Shown here piece after piece: positions 1-46,549 of a DNA stretch of 46,549 bases; within the stretch, counting starts at the first letter, position 1, and each line of letters begins with the position of its first letter. The translations under genes were made by a program, and so were the position numbers. Below the pieces are notes generated by a model that saw nothing but the letters and a program-made list of their open reading frames with translations, did not search any database and was not told the origin of the DNA. The stretch is taken from assembly GCA_964416925.1 (NCBI GenBank), contig CAYQFQ010000001.1:1-46549 (forward strand). The letters run 5' to 3'. This stretch comes from an uncultured Candidatus Saccharibacteria bacterium. Its GTDB lineage: Bacteria; Patescibacteriota; Minisyncoccia; Phycocordibacterales; GWA1-40-21.

Positions 1-13
1 CCTACTGGGCGCA
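1..13 (+). tRNA. 3' end of a tRNA cut by the window edge (identity unknown)
   Basis: CCTAC-TGGGCGC-A reads as T-stem 3' strand, acceptor 3' strand and discriminator. It is followed by the same hairpin plus anti-acceptor trailer (TGCGCCCA at 46-53) seen after four complete tRNAs. Confidence 0.4.
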
Positions 14-339
14 CAAATGAAAAATATGTAAATATTTTTCATTTGTGCGCCCAGAGTAAGCAATATGAATTGCTTACGTTAGGGGTCGAACAGCGGAACT
101 ATGTTTTTCTAGTAAGAAAAACAAGTGAGCTGGTGCCCAGACTTTTCCGAGTGGCGACGAGGAAAAAGTCGAGGGAGAAAGTGTACTCACGTCCCCTATT
201 TTAGGAATGTGACCACAGACATTAAAGATAGTTAGGATACTGTCCATGTAATGGAAGACTCCCTACTGAAAAAATTAGATTGGGCGGGGTCGCGAGATTT
301 TCTAGCAAGAAAATACTTGTGACCACAATATTATGTGAT
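14..339 (+). ncRNA. tRNA-trailer structured block: hairpin, anti-acceptor, GTAAG hairpin, then module 81-197 and further hairpin modules
   Basis: Hairpin 14-45. TGCGCCCA at 46-53 is complementary to 6-13. Hairpin GTAAGCAA..TTGCTTAC at about 56-78. Module closed by AGGGG (81-85) and CCCCT (193-197), containing a U-rich stem with AGTA loop (104-121), a hairpin with 12-nt loop GAGTGGCGACGA (140-170) and the motif GGAGAAAGTGTACTCACGT. Hairpin 288-324 contains G:T wobbles that pair only on this strand. Confidence 0.5.
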
Positions 340-421: not shown

Positions 422-734
422 CAGACAAAAAAACACTTTATAAGTGTTTTTTTTGTGCACGGAGTAAGTGCTTAATAGCACTTACGCGAGAGGACTTGAA
501 AAGGTTGAATATATTTTGATTAGTGAACTCACAAATCTAAATATGAAACCTATACCGAATCTGTAAGATTCAAGACCCCTCTCTCGCGCACAAAAAACTT
601 AAACGAAATGCGACTAAGCATTTCGTTTTTTGTTTTTACAGCGAGAGAGGGCTCGAAAGCCGGAGGCAGACGTGCCGAGGCGAGGTCGCGGGTTTTGCTA
701 GCAAGCAAAAACCTGTGACCAAGTCTTCCTCGCC
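422..734 (+). ncRNA. tRNA-Leu trailer: two consecutive mirror modules with a pseudo tRNA-Leu 3' end between them
   Basis: Hairpin 427-453. GTGCACGG (454-461) is complementary to CCGTGCAC of the tRNA. GTAAGTGCT..AGCACTTAC hairpin follows. GAGAGGACTTGAA (487-499) is complementary to T loop plus T stem TTCAAGTCCTCTC. Degenerate direct copy of the tRNA 3' end, TTCAAGACCCCTCTCTCGCGCA (about 569-590). Second hairpin, then GCGAGAGAGGG (641-651), then hairpin 684-720. Confidence 0.5.
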
Positions 735-785
735 CACATAATAATTCTTAATAAAAAACCTTTATTTAGGGACGTTTTTTATTAC

Positions 786-6730: not shown

Positions 6731-6925
6731 ACGCACATCCTTTCTATATTTTGAAGAACACAAACTCATTTACTTAGACTTTTTCCCCATGTCTAGTATA
6801 ACACTAGACAATTACAAAGTCAATACCACCTATTAGGAGATTTTGACCACTTTATATAATAAAAGTTTCAATTCAAAATCAAAAATTATTAGTTTGTTTT
6901 TTTAATATGAAGACGAGAAAATTTG

Positions 6926-7444
6926 TTATTTTTTAATATTATCAATTACAAAATGTACTCTCTCCTCGGGTGGCAAAACTGGTACTGTTATTATTGAGTA
7001 TCCATATTCTTCATATCCTTCCTTTATTGCATCATGAATAGCAAGGGCTGTTTCCCTATCCTCGAAACGAGACTCATCTTGTGTATATGAAGGAAGTGGA
7101 TCTAACAAAAAAACCTTATCATATCTATTATGACCGAATTCTTCCAAGAGTTTTGATACGGGCATCTTGTAGTGGATAGAGTAACCATAATTATCTACAA
7201 TTCCCCTATCTAGAAATACTTCATCTGTAGTTATTTTAGATTCTAATTCTATTTGACGTCTTATGACCTCCTGTTGAAATAATTCAGGATTATTTGCTGG
7301 AGAAAAATCACTATCCACCTTTTTCTTTTCCTCAATAAGTATTCTAGATACTTCAGGAACGATGACAAATCCAAGTTTAGAAAGTAATTCAATAAGTTTA
7401 GTTTTTCCAGTACCAGGACCACCAGTTATGACATACTTTTTCAT
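6926..7444 (-). CDS. P-loop ATPase (AAA_28 / NadR-like, COG3911-type)
   Basis: Walker A GGPGTGKT. Start set at MKKYVITGG, because the longer ORF runs into tRNA-Ser. Confidence 0.6.
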   Translation of the reverse strand: MKKYVITGGPGTGKTKLIELLSKLGFVIVPEVSRILIEEKKKVDSDFSPANNPELFQQEVIRRQIELESKITTDEVFLDRGIVDNYGYSIHYKMPVSKLLEEFGHNRYDKVFLLDPLPSYTQDESRFEDRETALAIHDAIKEGYEEYGYSIITVPVLPPEERVHFVIDNIKK

Positions 7445-18839: not shown

Positions 18840-19029
18840 CAAATTAAAGGCCGAAAGGCTTTTTTAATTTGCTGGGGGAAGTGAGTGATAGTATCACTCA
18901 CGCCTTGGATTCGAACGCCGGAATACATTTTTCTTAGCAAAGAAAAATATGAGGCGGTGCCTAGACTAATCATACGCGACGGCGTATGATTAAGCCGAAG
19001 GAGAAAGTGTATTCACGTATCCAAGTTCC
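18840..19029 (+). ncRNA. tRNA-Gln mirror trailer (cleanest member of the family)
   Basis: Hairpin 18841-18870 with GAAA loop. TGCTGGGGGA at 18870-18879 (anti-acceptor, 10/10). Hairpin 18880-18901. CTTGGATTCGAAC at 18904-18916 (anti-T, 13/13). U-rich stem with AGCA loop at 18927-18948. Hairpin 18967-18992. GGAGAAAGTGTATTCACGT. Closing ATCCAAG at 19019-19025. Confidence 0.55.
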
Positions 19030-19149
19030 ACAATAAACACTCATCAACATATTTGTCAGTACAAATTCTGTCACAACACACAAAGCAAATAAACCTAGAA
19101 ATTATCTGGTGAAAAAACAACAAGATTATCAGATTAAATAATTAAAATA

Positions 19150-30562: not shown

Positions 30563-30756
30563 AAAAATACACGGAAGCCGTTGACCAGGAGACTAGGAAG
30601 TCTGATTGGTCACAAATTTCTTTCGTCGTCACTCAAGAAATTTTCGACCCCAGCTTGTATGTTTTTTCTACTGAAAAAACATTACTTCGCTTTTCAATCC
30701 TGACACGTGTGCAAAGCAGTTTGCACACTCAACAGCACCCTCCGTTACACTACGGG
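30563..30756 (-). ncRNA. tRNA-Thr(GGU) mirror trailer ending in a 15-nt copy of the tRNA 3' end
   Basis: Minus-sense order: GCTGTTG (anti-acceptor, one G:U), hairpin GTGTGCAAA..TTTGCACAC, CAGGATTGAA (anti-T), U-rich stem with AGTA loop (30662-30679), hairpin with loop GAGTGACGACGA (30608-30649), TCCTGGTCAACGGCT (30576-30590). Confidence 0.55.
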
Positions 30757-31006
30757 AGCCGTTGACCAGGATTGAACTGGTGACCTTGTCATTCGTTTAC
30801 ACCTCATCTTACGAGAGGACTAGACTGTATCTTTCCGCCTGAGGCGGACCCTTGTCAGTCGTTCGAGCGCTTTTTATAGCGCTACGGTCTTGTCCTTTTT
30901 AAAAGGAGATTAACCGTAATTCGGGATTCATATAAAAGTTACCAATTATATGGGCAGGGGTTCACGACCCACCAATGACATGCTCTACCAACTGAGCTAC
31001 AACGGC
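30757..31006 (-). tRNA. tRNA-Thr(GGU) interrupted by a 177-nt intron (30794-30970) after anticodon position 36
   Basis: Exon 1 (31006-30971): GCCGTTGTAGCTCAGTTGGTAGAGCATGTCATTGGT. Exon 2 (30793-30757): AATGACAAGGTCACCAGTTCAATCCTGGTCAACGGCT. Joined, they give a canonical 73-nt cloverleaf with loop TTGGTAA. Promoter TTGAAA-N17-TATTCT upstream. Confidence 0.8.
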
Positions 31007-44265: not shown

Positions 44266-45912
44266 CTATGGATTAACCACCCTCAAAAGTTCTTCAAGAG
44301 TAGTAATCCCCCCTTTAACTTTTTGAACACCATCTTCAAACATAGATTTGAAACCCTGTCCCCTTACGAGTGTCGTGATATCTTTTGTTGATGGGTTCTT
44401 GGCTATTAGGTCTTGCAGCTCCGGAGATGTAACAATATATTCAAATACTCCAACCCGTCCCTTATATCCAGTTTGTGCACAAACATCACAACCCTTTCCC
44501 TTATAAAGAACCAAGGATTTTTCCGGAAAAAATTTAGAAACGTCCGGACCAAATTTATCAAGATCCTTTTTTGACGCAGTAAAGCTATATCTACAAGTAT
44601 CACATATTTTTCTAGCAAGTCGCTGAGAAAGAATAAGCTCAATAGTTGAACCTAACATAAATGACTCAATACCCATATCCATAAAACGTGGAATTGCGGT
44701 TGCTGCGTTGTTTGAGTGAAAAGTAGACAACAGTAAGTGCCCTGTTAGTGCTGCATTTACAGCAATATCAGCTGTTTCAAGATCTCTAATTTCACCAACC
44801 AAGATAACATTTGGGTCCTGTCTCGCTATAGCACGGAGTCCTTTTGCGAAAGTTAAATTTGTTTGGGAATTTGCTTGGATTTGATTTATACCCTGAATCT
44901 TATACTCTACTGGATCTTCGATCGTTGTTATGTTGATTTTCTTGGTATTTATAACCCTGAGTAATGAATACAGTGTTGTTGTCTTTCCAGAACCAGTTGG
45001 ACCAGTAACAAGAATCATTCCAAAAGGTTTGTGAGCACTCTTAACTAATTGTTCCTGAAGTTCGCTAGATAGACCGAGGTTACTTAAGGTTAAATCTTCT
45101 ATGTATGAAGAAAGAATTCTAATGGCCACTTTCTCGCCATCAAGTGTAGGAATTATAGAAACTCTCAAATCTACTGGTTGAGCATATTCCTTTGAGCTAA
45201 ATCTTATTGCGCCGTCTTGTGAGCTAAAATGTTCATCAATACGAAGTTTAGCCAAAACCTTAAAACGGTTTACGATATTTTCATAAAATTCCTTTGGTAT
45301 TTTTCCTGCTTCATGCAAAACACCATCGACTCTAAAACGAACCACAACTTCTGTCTCCTGAGGTTCACAATGAACATCTGATGCTTTAAGCGAAAGTGCA
45401 TCTTCGATAATCTGGTCAACAATTTCAGGCGTTGCTTTACCTTTACTCTCAAGAAGCTTAAGAAATCTTGTATTTAGTCCATTCGTATAGTTAACAAATA
45501 GATCATCTATTTCTTCTTCTAAAGCAAAAGCTACTTTAATTTTTTTATTAGGGAAAATACTCTTTAACACGTCTGGTAACTCTGCGTTTTTTGGATCATT
45601 TGTTGCAAAAACTATTTCGGTTTTTTTCTGTTCATATATAACAACATTAAACTTCTTGGCTGTATCCTCAGGAATCATTAAGACAACTTCTTTCGAAGGA
45701 GCATTAGAACTTAGGTTTGCGTATGGTACACCTAGAGACTCAGCAATAGCTTGTCCAATTATATTTTTAGATATTAGCCCTTCAAATAACAAATAATCAA
45801 TAACCGATCCCCTACGGTCTTGAGCATACCCCTCTGCTTTTTTTATGTCATCAGCAGTAATATAATTACCTTCAACAAGAATCTTTTCTATAGCTGATTC
45901 ATCAAATTTCAT
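44266..45912 (-). CDS. pilB: type IV pilus assembly ATPase (GspE/PilB family)
   Basis: Walker A GPTGSGKTT, Asp box, Walker B VILVGEIRD, His box and tetracysteine CDTC...CDVC. Confidence 0.9.
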   Translation of the reverse strand: MKFDESAIEKILVEGNYITADDIKKAEGYAQDRRGSVIDYLLFEGLISKNIIGQAIAESLGVPYANLSSNAPSKEVVLMIPEDTAKKFNVVIYEQKKTEIVFATNDPKNAELPDVLKSIFPNKKIKVAFALEEEIDDLFVNYTNGLNTRFLKLLESKGKATPEIVDQIIEDALSLKASDVHCEPQETEVVVRFRVDGVLHEAGKIPKEFYENIVNRFKVLAKLRIDEHFSSQDGAIRFSSKEYAQPVDLRVSIIPTLDGEKVAIRILSSYIEDLTLSNLGLSSELQEQLVKSAHKPFGMILVTGPTGSGKTTTLYSLLRVINTKKINITTIEDPVEYKIQGINQIQANSQTNLTFAKGLRAIARQDPNVILVGEIRDLETADIAVNAALTGHLLLSTFHSNNAATAIPRFMDMGIESFMLGSTIELILSQRLARKICDTCRYSFTASKKDLDKFGPDVSKFFPEKSLVLYKGKGCDVCAQTGYKGRVGVFEYIVTSPELQDLIAKNPSTKDITTLVRGQGFKSMFEDGVQKVKGGITTLEELLRVVNP

Positions 45913-46020
45913 AATAATTTTTATTATTTGTTTTTAAAAAAAACTTTTGCTTTTACTAGTAATATTTTAACATAAATTTAAATATATTGTATATAGTAAA
46001 ACTATAACATTACAAAATAC

Positions 46021-46470
46021 TTAGACCTCGCTATGCTTTGTGTTCTCCGGCTTTCGAATCCCACAAGAATACGACCGGTTGGAATTTCGACCATTACATG
46101 GTCAGTACCCTCATTGGATTTTTTGTTTCGCTCTGCTCACAAAAAATGCTCAATGAGGCTTCGAATCCCAACGCAAGTGAATACTGAGGGGATTCGGCTA
46201 TTACATAGCCAGGTACTTTTCCATCTCGAAGACTCGATAAGGAAAAGTCTTTCGAATCCCACACGGAGGCAAGCAGTTGCGAGACTAGCGGGATATATTC
46301 GGTCACGAGTTTTTTGTTCGCCGTCGCTCACAAAAACCCTCGACCCCGACTCGCTATTTTTCCTGCTAGAAAAATTAGCTCCGTCTTTCGAATCCCAGCG
46401 TGAGTGAATACTTTCACTCACTCCGGTCGCGCAAATAAAATAGCCCCCTTTTGGGGGCTATTTTTATTTG
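46021..46470 (-). ncRNA. tRNA-Asp trailer: mirror segment followed by a tandem array of at least four stem-closed modules
   Basis: Minus-sense order: hairpin 46436-46468, TGCGCGACCGG (anti-acceptor, 11/11), hairpin GTGAGTGAA..TTCACTCAC, TGGGATTCGAA (anti-T, 11/11). Then modules closed by GGGATTC/GAATCCC-type stems. TTCGAATCCCA recurs on the plus strand at 46053, 46160, 46251 and 46387. Confidence 0.55.
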
Positions 46471-46544
46471 CGCGACCGGTGGGATTCGAACCCATGACCT
46501 CTCCCGTGACAGGGGAGCGCTCTAACCAGCTGAGCTACGATCGC
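46471..46544 (-). tRNA. tRNA-Asp(GUC)
   Basis: Acceptor GCGATCG/CGGTCGC (one G:U), anticodon loop CTGTCAC, T arm ATGGG-TTCGAAT-CCCAC. Confidence 0.9.
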
Positions 46545-46549
46545 ATTAT

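Follow-up and report, generated by a model that had tools for sequence, protein, structure and literature searches.

The stretch of DNA analysed here, which we call the window, comprises the 46,549 nt of contig CAYQFQ010000001.1 (assembly GCA_964416925.1, uncultured Candidatus Saccharibacteria bacterium). Near its right end lies a tRNA-Asp(GTC) gene on the minus strand (46471-46544; Rfam RF00005, 64.3 bits; ARAGORN 46470-46544), and the 450 bases behind this gene are an array of four units, of which the first (u1) is complete, the second and third (u2 and u3) are internally deleted and the fourth (u4) is truncated. On balance, we think it probable that this region is a decayed array of small, non-autonomous, structured mobile repeats that are specialised on tRNA 3' ends and co-transcribed with the tRNA.

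Throughout, A denotes the T-loop and T-stem 3' strand of a tRNA, B its acceptor 3' strand and discriminator, and C its trailer. Inverted copies of A and B are called A' and B', a recurring 22-nt hairpin is called hp, and the helices formed by B'/B and A'/A are called P1 and P2, respectively. For tRNA-Asp, the block A-B corresponds to the last 22 nt, TTCGAATCCCACCGGTCGCGCA (46469-46490), and is the source of the copies found in the units. Scores given for R1 refer to a covariance model whose seed consisted of 43 metagenome units carrying the type III cargo described below, with no window sequence among them.

An array of four units behind tRNA-Asp

A first interpretation made from the letters of the DNA (the sequence-only reading) had reported four copies of an 11-mer, TTCGAATCCCA, inverted relative to tRNA-Asp. 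The 11-mer matches exactly on the plus strand at all four positions (46053, 46160, 46251 and 46387, with spacings of 107, 91 and 136 nt), and its minus-strand copy lies within the tRNA gene at 46480-46490. When one mismatch is allowed, the window holds 9 matches, compared with a mean of 1.03 and a maximum of 4 in shuffled sequences. The 11-mer is re-used as proposed, but it is merely part of a longer copied block of ~20 nt of the tRNA 3' end.

Read in tRNA sense, the array starts with the tRNA (A-B) and a spacer palindrome (C, loop, C') and continues with u1 to u4. The spacer (46434-46468), recovered by repeat search and as a terminator-like match, is a terminator-like hairpin, AAAATAGCCCCC / GGGGGCTATTTT, and together with the tRNA 3' end and the adjoining B' it forms an inverted repeat with 23-nt arms (46418-46440 / 46462-46484). 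All parts of u1 lie on the minus strand. B' (46423-46433; TGCGCGACCGG in tRNA sense) is an exact inverted copy of the acceptor 3' strand, the discriminator and CA; a single A separates it from hp (46400-46421; GTGAGTGAAAGTATTCACTCAC; family consensus A-GTRAG...CTYAC-G), and GC then leads to A' (46387-46397; TGGGATTCGAA), the inverted T-loop and T-stem 3' strand. A type II cargo of 93 nt follows (46294-46386; AGACGGAG-hairpin-GCGAGTCGGGGTCGAG-hairpin-CTCGTGACCGAAT; pattern match at 46383; R1 match 46422..46292, 38.4 bits), and the unit ends in a degenerate direct A-B copy (46277-46293; TCCCGCTAGTCTCGCAA, as compared with TCCCACCGGTCGCGCAA in the tRNA). These coordinates agree with the earlier placement of the hairpin at the T-stem/acceptor junction of the tRNA-proximal copy, which on the plus strand reads TTCGAATCCCA (46387-46397), GC, GTGAGTGAATACTTTCACTCAC (46400-46421), T and CCGGTCGCGCA (46423-46433); the linker is this GC and not the single G that had been given.

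The next two units have lost the spacer, B' and hp. In u2 (46187-46261, minus strand; R1 match 46286..46187, 31.3 bits, E=1.6e-6), A' (46251-46261) is followed by a type III cargo consisting of a long hairpin, P3 (46215-46248), ACCT and a GTA-capped hairpin, P4 (46196-46210), and the closing strand is a direct A copy, GAATCCCC (46188-46195). The 3' half of an hp, AGTATTCACTTGCG (46172-46185, minus strand; direct repeat D2, 88% to 46387-46412), marks the deletion between u2 and u3. The third unit (46070-46170, minus strand) is the top R1 match in the window (75.5 bits, E=4.4e-18) and is composed of A' (46160-46170), a type III cargo (P3 46109-46159, GTACT, P4 46089-46103) and a direct A-B copy, GAAATTCCAACCGGTCGTA (46070-46088; repeat D5 with respect to the tRNA). 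What is left of u4 (46024-46063, minus strand) is A' (46053-46063) with 29 nt from the start of a cargo of type I/II (AGCCGGAG...CGAGGTC), beyond which lies the AT-rich promoter region of pilB with promoter-like sites at 46015-45911. The cargo types behind tRNA-Asp are II, III and III plus the truncated type I/II stub, and the segments that the units have in common are only 11-31 nt long and imperfect. The array of four modules proposed earlier does exist, but its members are unequal (one complete, two deleted, one stub) and belong to two or three cargo types.

The same reading had described the units as closed, Y-shaped structures, which holds for the cleanly closed u2 and u3, whereas u1 is closed by a weaker stem and u4 breaks off after ~29 nt. 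Its worked example, GGGATTC...GAATCCC (46188-46261 in u2), folds as described at -30.2 kcal/mol in tRNA sense (z = -5.7) and at -30.0 in antisense. The corresponding sense and antisense values are -32.6 (z = -4.0) and -27.4 kcal/mol for u3, and -55.6 (z = -4.9) and -45.0 kcal/mol for u1, the sense energies being far lower than those of shuffled controls. The sense fold of u3 has a closing G.U pair, and its closing stem is lost in the antisense fold. A U.G pair had also been reported in tRNA sense for an AGCA-loop hairpin; it is present, and this hairpin has 7 pairs in the sense fold versus 6 in antisense. GTA-capped hairpins had been placed at 46091-46105, 46197-46211, 248-260 and 557-571; the last is located correctly, the two in the array are located at 46089-46103 and 46196-46210 instead, and the sequence at 248-260, TCCATGTAATGGA, has a shorter stem. 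Perfect 5-bp hairpins of the form Y-GTA-R occur in the whole window only at 46089-46103, 46196-46210 and 557-571, in each case on the tRNA-sense strand. A 124-aa open reading frame (ORF) at 46033-46407 on the plus strand, opposite to the tRNA, overlaps the four structured units; it is almost certainly spurious, and gene callers may annotate it.

The same grammar at other tRNA genes of the contig

A complete element measures ~110-190 bp, and in tRNA sense a full unit runs from a spacer hairpin (palindromic and often terminator-like) through B', hp, A' and a structured cargo to A-B. In each unit, ~20 nt of the tRNA 3' end are present twice, once inverted and once direct, and in some cases the copy reaches into the trailer. 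Cargo of type I has the form ...GGTGCCYAGAC-hairpin-...GGAGAAAGTGTA..., type II the form AGACGGAG-hairpin-CGAGTCGGGGTCGAG-hairpin-TCGTGACC, and type III is a Y shape in which the junction GUACUG connects a long hairpin to a short one capped by a GUA loop. This grammar is found at five tRNA loci of the window, and at each of them A and B are those of the tRNA concerned.

The leftmost locus (1-339, plus strand; R1 matches 55-148, 31.0 bits, and 180-265, 25.2 bits) follows a tRNA situated beyond the contig edge. It opens with a spacer palindrome, B', hp, A' and type I cargo, after which come type III-like and type II-like modules. The locus behind tRNA-Leu(TAG) (423-735, plus strand) consists of a type III unit (R1 match 463-580, 66.1 bits, E=1.2e-15), a second spacer hairpin and a type II-like unit. 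A single type II unit lies between tRNA-Thr(GGU) and tRNA-Thr(CGU) (30563-30757, minus strand; R1 match 30729..30637, 26.7 bits), where there is no terminator-like spacer and the unit ends in a 20-nt direct repeat (95%) of the upstream tRNA 3' end and trailer. The locus behind tRNA-Gln(CTG) (18841-19035, plus strand; R1 match 18880-19011, 38.8 bits) holds one type I unit and has an ortholog in a metagenome locus, L126, in which the tRNA-Gln and the 5' half of the unit are identical while the two spacer arms differ, in concert with the trailer portion of the distal repeat. Between these two orthologs, the spacer hairpin and one internal cargo hairpin have been replaced by unrelated sequences that still pair, a pattern of replacement of whole hairpins and not of point-wise compensation.

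The sequence-only reading had linked the array to other tRNA trailers and had proposed a covariance model as a check. The link is borne out, and R1, built from metagenome units, matches u3, u1, u2 and the four other loci, always on the tRNA-sense strand. By summed locus coordinates the elements amount to ~1.5 kb of the 46.5-kb contig (~3%) and stand behind five of the seven tRNA genes in it or at its edge. Sequence similarity among the window units is low, and they are old copies that have diverged from each other. The contig starts inside a tRNA 3' end (cctactgggcgca...) with its spacer palindrome, and it ends 5 nt past tRNA-Asp.

A structured family in metagenomes

Metagenomes were scanned with a pattern that comprised only hp, a short linker and GGATTCGAA, and at least 120 contigs were retrieved; the locus counts in this and later paragraphs are among the matches listed from these contigs. 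The 126 pattern matches represent 84 distinct units, all of which have the unit grammar. Of the 126 matches, 59 have a tRNA on the same strand whose end lies 6-56 nt upstream of them, and 11 more have one further upstream; the tRNAs preceding the units include those for Ser, Pro, Gln, Asn, Tyr and Met. In 15 of 51 loci, compared at a fixed register, B' and the tRNA end are perfectly complementary, and in 18 of 47 the downstream direct copy agrees with the tRNA 3' end at 15-16 of 16 nt. The most frequent cargo by a wide margin is type III (135 occurrences of its motif in 80 of 120 loci versus ~24 expected by chance, by our own estimate), and the type II pattern was also found in 7 metagenome loci. 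The 17-nt type I cargo motif, GGAGAAAGTGTAYTCAC, gave only chance matches in unrelated bacteria when compared with the genome collection. The window PilB has named homologs in Paceibacterota, Taylorbacteria, Lloydbacteria and Liptonbacteria, which places the source organism among the Parcubacteria-type bacteria of the CPR, and the family appears to nest at tRNA 3' ends in bacteria of the candidate phyla radiation (CPR) of the Paceibacteria type, the CPR status of the metagenome contigs being presumed via these homologs. No other contig with the exact window PilB was found. At or above the gathering threshold, Rfam recognised only tRNAs in the window and yielded no matching family for the units of 20 metagenome loci, and a search of 45900-46549 at E up to 10 added nothing to the tRNA; Rfam 15 has no family that covers the elements. 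Viral contigs (IMG/VR) and phage genomes held no copy of them.

In 710 kb of metagenome loci, R1 identified 170 + 34 = 204 units. Once aligned, the units have helices that covary strongly across 131 distinct sequences: in an alignment fitted to the model, which favours its structure, 96.9% of cells are paired versus 63.3% in shuffled and 32-48% in slid controls, both sides of a pair have changed in 690 cells versus 184 in shuffled ones, and compensatory change is seen at 20 of 20 pairs. The hairpin hp, which is helix 1 of the model, is paired in 98.7% and covaries at 9 of 9 pairs. An analysis with MAFFT and RNAalifold gave the same helices, with 16 of 20 pairs compensated. The invariant bases are found at the junctions (GUACUG, GUA) and in an internal loop (5'GA/3'GAA).

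How stable are the two closing helices, and which strand folds? In all 45 scorable units P2 spans 4-7 bp, whereas P1 reaches 7 bp or more in 21 of the 45 and does not rise above background in ~19. A conserved G.U pair (34 sequences of the R1 alignment), the excess of G.T over A.C among isolated P3 mismatches (17 and 6, respectively) and the sense folds of u1 and u3 identify the tRNA-sense strand as the one that folds, and transcription in this sense is likely. The stems are almost purely Watson-Crick: those of hp comprise 406 Watson-Crick pairs with no sense and 2 antisense G.U pairs, and those of P4 comprise 239 with 3 sense and 1 antisense. Such near-pure stems do not fit typical functional RNA. 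The apical loops are GNA triloops (Y-GTA-R in P4, GC-GAA-GC or GC-GCA-GC in P3), which are typical of very stable DNA mini-hairpins and also compatible with RNA. The fold under selection is that of an RNA or of single-stranded DNA, and the data are compatible with both.

Copy number and copies at unrelated sites

The number of units varies between near-identical assemblies, a point that the sequence-only reading had suggested examining. At a tRNA-Gln(UUG) locus, metagenome loci L109 and L226 have one unit while L181 and L205 have two exact tandem copies of spacer and unit, with flanks that are otherwise alike. This same 174-bp element, identical in sequence, also occupies a non-tRNA site in L209, L227 and L228, where it stands behind the tRNA-end-like sequence TGTTCCAACTTCGTACCAGACGGCTAGC, and it recurs at a third site (L112, L119) with a different spacer. 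In all, 24 unit pairs falling into at least six groups are at least 95% identical and have no flank similarity on either side. The identity between such copies starts just past the left B-like sequence and stops after the element's own A-B copy; the left-hand pseudo-sites are much more diverged (~70% by eye) and look like older resident sites. In L229 the element and the downstream gene are as in L209 and L228 and the upstream DNA is different, and three contigs, L230-L232, break off within the element. The direct repeats do not stop at the tRNA end but continue into the trailer. The distribution of the elements is patchy, and in relatives with 70-83% PilB identity 107 kb contained no units and no tRNA-Asp beside pilB. 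In the closest of these (83% identity; L101, 1-205) there is no tRNA-Asp array upstream of pilB, and two copies of a different hairpin repeat, GAGTTTGGG(T/A)TGG(G/A)CCC(C)AAAGGA, are present.

A search for a gene linked to the elements by all-against-all clustering of 931 ORFs from 120 loci returned housekeeping families only, the largest of them present in 11 of 120 loci, and no integrase, transposase or recombinase was recognised among the 18 window ORFs tested. Taken together, the evidence points to proliferating DNA repeats in preference to a dedicated RNA machine of tRNA trailers.

Discussion

What kind of element would leave an array of this composition? We favour the reading as decayed mobile repeats described at the outset, and we infer their mode of movement as follows. 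An enzyme encoded elsewhere would move the elements and insert them site-specifically beside sequences resembling a tRNA 3' end. Because B' and A' are able to pair with B and A, one strand, either tRNA-sense DNA or the transcript, would fold through P1 and P2, its inverted copies pairing with its direct ones, into a duplex replica of the tRNA gene 3' end that might serve as the attachment site. The array would be co-transcribed with the tRNA and removed with its trailer. The next element would dock behind the fresh A-B copy, and mixed arrays would grow in this manner and later decay by deletion. Since every element ends in A-B, the docking sequence would be regenerated with each insertion, which would explain how different cargo types come to stand behind one tRNA, and tandem duplication together with deletion between repeats would explain the remaining features of the array.

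Several observations weigh against this reading. No excised form, empty site or target duplication was seen; a search for an empty site via the gene downstream of the non-tRNA copy returned more filled sites and a rearranged left flank, and the one ortholog retrieved without the element is too diverged for an insertion site to be read. Neither the window ORFs nor the clustering of linked genes identified a mobilising enzyme. The window copies are old, so that the evidence for mobility concerns the family and not these particular copies, and near-identical copies in different contigs could partly derive from different genomes and not from different sites of one genome. The strand preference is expected of RNA and equally of a folded DNA strand, and the conserved unpaired junction bases and long-term covariation would also fit functional RNA. 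Moreover, units that lie within tRNA operons without a terminator (the Thr locus of the window, L114, L123) must be transcribed.

The main rival, less probable in our estimation yet plausible, is that the units are functional tRNA-like non-coding RNAs, transcribed with the tRNA and cut out by RNase P and RNase Z. P1 and P2 would then imitate the stacked acceptor and T arms, with hp at the position of the D/anticodon arms or of a long variable arm and the cargo at that of the T-loop, and, for an enzyme that recognises the upper half of that tRNA, the RNAs could be decoys, regulators or substrates. Such a role is consistent with the orientation and position of the units (tRNA sense and downstream of a tRNA, as in the 59 of 126 matches with a tRNA end 6-56 nt upstream), with their occurrence inside some tRNA operons with no intervening terminator, with covarying helices and invariant junction bases, and with a 3' strand that is often identical to the tRNA at 15-16 of 16 nt. 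The greater stability of u1 and u3 in the sense fold, the conserved G.U pair and the G.T over A.C bias likewise favour the sense strand. The closing helix is harder to reconcile with a tRNA mimic, as the pairing of P1 with the unit's own 3' copy is at background in ~19 of 45 units and runs through the discriminator into the trailer such that no free NCCA-like end is left. The Rfam tRNA model does not score the units, hp and P4 have fewer G.U pairs (<1%) than a functional RNA would lead one to expect, truncation or internal deletion has affected many units (u2 to u4 included), and three unrelated cargo types occupy one scaffold. Relatives that lack units and a copy number that varies among strains give no sign of an essential role.

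An unlikely and more speculative proposal is that the elements represent a new kind of mobile DNA, in which a split guide (B'-hp-A') complementary to its target, the final ~20 nt of one particular tRNA gene, travels with a copy of that target, and a host enzyme encoded elsewhere inserts the folded replica behind that tRNA. The folded strand would be a duplex replica with two protruding structured domains, and single-stranded DNA taken up via the competence pilus is a possible source. In a variant of this proposal, the same fold would exist as RNA, be released by tRNA-processing enzymes and have a cellular role.

The units might also be passive by-products of replication errors, arising by template switching at the hairpin behind the tRNA, which would duplicate the tRNA 3' end first in inverted and then in direct orientation, and having neither function nor mobility of their own. 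We regard this as improbable. It would suit the layout of direct, inverted and direct copies (A-B ... B'-A' ... A-B) with repeats that reach into the trailer, as well as the near-perfect palindromes, the joint replacement of both spacer arms in L126 and the exact tandem duplication, but it leaves unexplained why hp and cargo are conserved over hundreds of units behind different tRNAs and why identical elements stand at non-tRNA sites with unrelated flanks. Very improbable is the idea of self-cleaving ribozymes, or of DNA copies of a viroid-like circular RNA whose rolling-circle multimers would be the arrays. The three-way-junction shape of u2 and u3, the head-to-tail order and the branched rod into which unit and spacer would fold recall such RNAs, and the sequence-only reading had suggested assaying for self-cleavage on account of the junction shape. 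Rfam searches gave this suggestion no support, since no ribozyme family was matched in the window or the 20 loci at the gathering threshold, nor in 45900-46549 when E up to 10 was admitted. The units do not contain the hammerhead core CUGAUGA, and neighbouring units differ in cargo type, unlike rolling-circle copies. Finally, a misassembly caused by collapsed tRNA repeats or a degenerate CRISPR (clustered regularly interspaced short palindromic repeats) array is scarcely credible even though the contig ends 5 nt past one tRNA and begins inside the 3' end of another and assemblies do break at repeats, because >120 contigs obtained independently, from many samples and with many assemblers, have this architecture, an independent ortholog exists for the Gln locus, and the shared segments are imperfect and 11-31 nt long with an irregular period (107, 91 and 136 nt) and a "repeat" of 11 nt.

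Other known classes were compared with the units and set aside. Only the five real tRNAs of the window score as tRNAs (RF00005, ARAGORN), and 46020-46468 does not score at E up to 10, which argues against a tRNA or tRNA pseudogene. The objection to a CRISPR array raised earlier was sound, as the shared block is 11 nt, the spacings are irregular and the "spacers" are homologous structured units; regular repeats of 23-50 nt with unique spacers of similar length are lacking. Like miniature inverted-repeat transposable elements, the units have near-identical copies at unrelated sites (24 pairs in at least six groups), but their arms A'/A and B'/B are local tRNA copies that differ between tRNAs and are not element-specific, and no short target duplication is definable. 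Direct repeats of the tRNA 3' end beside an intact tRNA, as left by tRNA-targeting integrative elements, are present (18 of 47 loci; u3 and the Thr locus in the window), but no recombinase was found among the 18 window ORFs tested, and in the clustering no protein family occurs in more than 11 of 120 loci. REP/BIME (REPIN) elements with a RAYT, which are imperfect palindromes of 20-40 nt clustered in alternating orientation, do not match units of 110-190 bp with several helices and a single orientation, and no Y1 transposase was seen among the window ORFs. For integron cassettes with attC, which go with intI and attI, the unit ends would have to be RYYYAAC/GTTRRRY and not tRNA 3' sequences, and no integrase was found in the window. 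A true T-loop motif was discounted, as the conservation of TTCGAA is largely forced by the search pattern and by A' being the reverse complement of each T-loop. The copied end is the genomic ...GCA-trailer and not CCA, which argues against a primer-binding site for reverse transcription. An H/ACA-like guide would have no unpaired target bases left, and we know of no H/ACA system in bacteria; a K-turn in the cargo was rejected because the bulged strand does not fit.

Among known systems, the units resemble in part the extragenic hairpin repeats. REP features include a conserved head tetranucleotide and a RAYT-type transposase, none of the latter having been seen near the units. REP/BIME (REPIN) of enterobacteria, BOX/RUP of pneumococci, Correia and Rickettsia palindromic elements and the hairpin repeats of sponge mitochondria (PMC2800124) are short, non-coding and hairpin-built like the units. 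They share with the units an intergenic position at gene 3' ends, an often terminator-like and modular build without genes, a number that varies among strains, and a structure conserved above sequence. These repeats have their own fixed termini, however, whereas the arms of the units are the last ~20 nt of the neighbouring tRNA and are tRNA-specific, and the units all have one orientation relative to the tRNA and carry multi-helix junction cargo in place of a single palindrome.

The second comparison is with phages and integrative and conjugative elements that use a tyrosine integrase to enter tRNA 3' ends. Their gene-less derivatives, known as cis-mobilizable elements (CIMEs), pile up by tandem accretion (PMC5704250). 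As in the units, insertion takes place at the tRNA 3' end, a carried copy of that end keeps the gene intact, direct repeats of the tRNA end flank the element, elements stack in tandem and secondary sites resemble the primary one. The units differ in being 100-1000x smaller (~0.1-0.2 kb), in having no integrase nearby and in holding, in addition, the attachment sequence in inverted form, interrupted by a conserved hairpin, and their excision is predicted only.

Integron attC sites and the attP hairpin of CTX phage, a substrate of XerCD, are recombination sites that act as folded single strands. The units resemble them in that an inverted repeat folds one strand into a duplex, structure is maintained while little of the sequence is, the branched tips may vary and tandem arrays occur; they differ in having no GTTRRRY or dif halves, no linked integron integrase and a duplex that mimics the end of a tRNA gene. 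This likeness is one of structure, and recombination of the units themselves is hypothetical. Viral tRNA-like structures are among the tRNA-like RNAs with which the units may also be compared. Others are cut out by tRNA enzymes, such as mascRNA from MALAT1 (PMC8457004) and bacterial YrlA (PMC4201824). All have a stacked helix resembling the acceptor and T arms, to which P1 and P2 of the units would correspond where both form, and, like the units, a tRNA-like 3' strand within a longer transcript, from which tRNA enzymes could release them; the units, by contrast, are not scored by the tRNA model, lack D and anticodon arms and a free discriminator end, match the adjacent tRNA base for base, and are repeated and truncated. 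None of these kinds combines a gene-less unit of 0.1-0.2 kb, a direct and a split inverted copy of a tRNA end, and interchangeable structured cargo. A search of full-text literature found no description of such elements, and the family is apparently undescribed.

The genomes of CPR bacteria rank among the smallest and most streamlined known, and despite this ~3% of the contig is made of these elements. At tRNA genes the elements cause metagenome assemblies to break; they also give rise to spurious ORFs, for instance the one at 46033-46407, and Rfam misses them. Since assemblies seem to break at the repeats, tRNA genes and their arrays may be under-represented in CPR bins. If the elements are mobile, they would show how an element without genes can specialise on a tRNA gene by carrying a copy of its target and the complement, and strain variation could be followed with them as natural markers. 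If instead they are RNAs, an uncultured lineage would possess a new and abundant class of tRNA mimics.

Additional observations

Some arrays have no preceding tRNA and open with a recurring leader, S0, as in L108, L110, L112/L119, L129 (~1495), L130, L144, L179, L193, L196, L209, L215 and L220. S0 consists of a GTTCGAAC-like sequence, ~12 nt and a B-like end (for example, GGTTCGAACGTCCTCTACCCAGCGGAGCA) and usually lies just past the terminator of the upstream gene. Copies of S0 at different sites are related yet diverged, and some arrays also terminate in ...GTTCGAAC. The leader may be the remnant of an old unit, a decayed tRNA end or a functional leader. At the other end of the arrays, the last A-B copy often lies 4-6 nt before a CTTGACA box (...GCGCAC-ATAC-CTTGACA-ATAC...; L129 at ~1880, L173, L203, L168, L190), which looks like the -35 element of the downstream gene's promoter.

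An hp-like hairpin together with a P3/P4-like module is nested within the long hairpin of type III in L214, L215 and L225, or stands in tandem within the cargo (GAAGTGACTTAATGTCACTTCGCAAGAC...) in L118 and L132, which suggests that modules can insert into each other. Near the four-unit array of L144, an IS30-like transposase ORF of 237 aa (...FTRPYRSTDKALVENTNRWIRMFVPKGTDL..., plus strand from ~114) was recognised by eye, a single case.

The gene for tRNA-Thr with anticodon GGU that precedes the type II unit of the window (30758-31006, minus strand) is interrupted in its anticodon loop by an insert of ~175 nt that separates a 5' part, GCCGTTGTAGCTCAGTTGGTAGAGCATGTCATTGGT, from a 3' part, ...AATGACAAGGTCACCAGTTCAATCCTGGTCAACGGCT, and the gene was missed by both ARAGORN and the Rfam tRNA model. 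The insert looks like a small group I intron, a resemblance to be read with caution, since the score that Rfam Intron_gpI assigns to 30802-30980 (18.8 bits, E=0.02) does not reach the gathering score of 50. Among the metagenome loci, L196 contains a bona fide group I intron at 6887-7126 (minus strand; Rfam, 65.6 bits).

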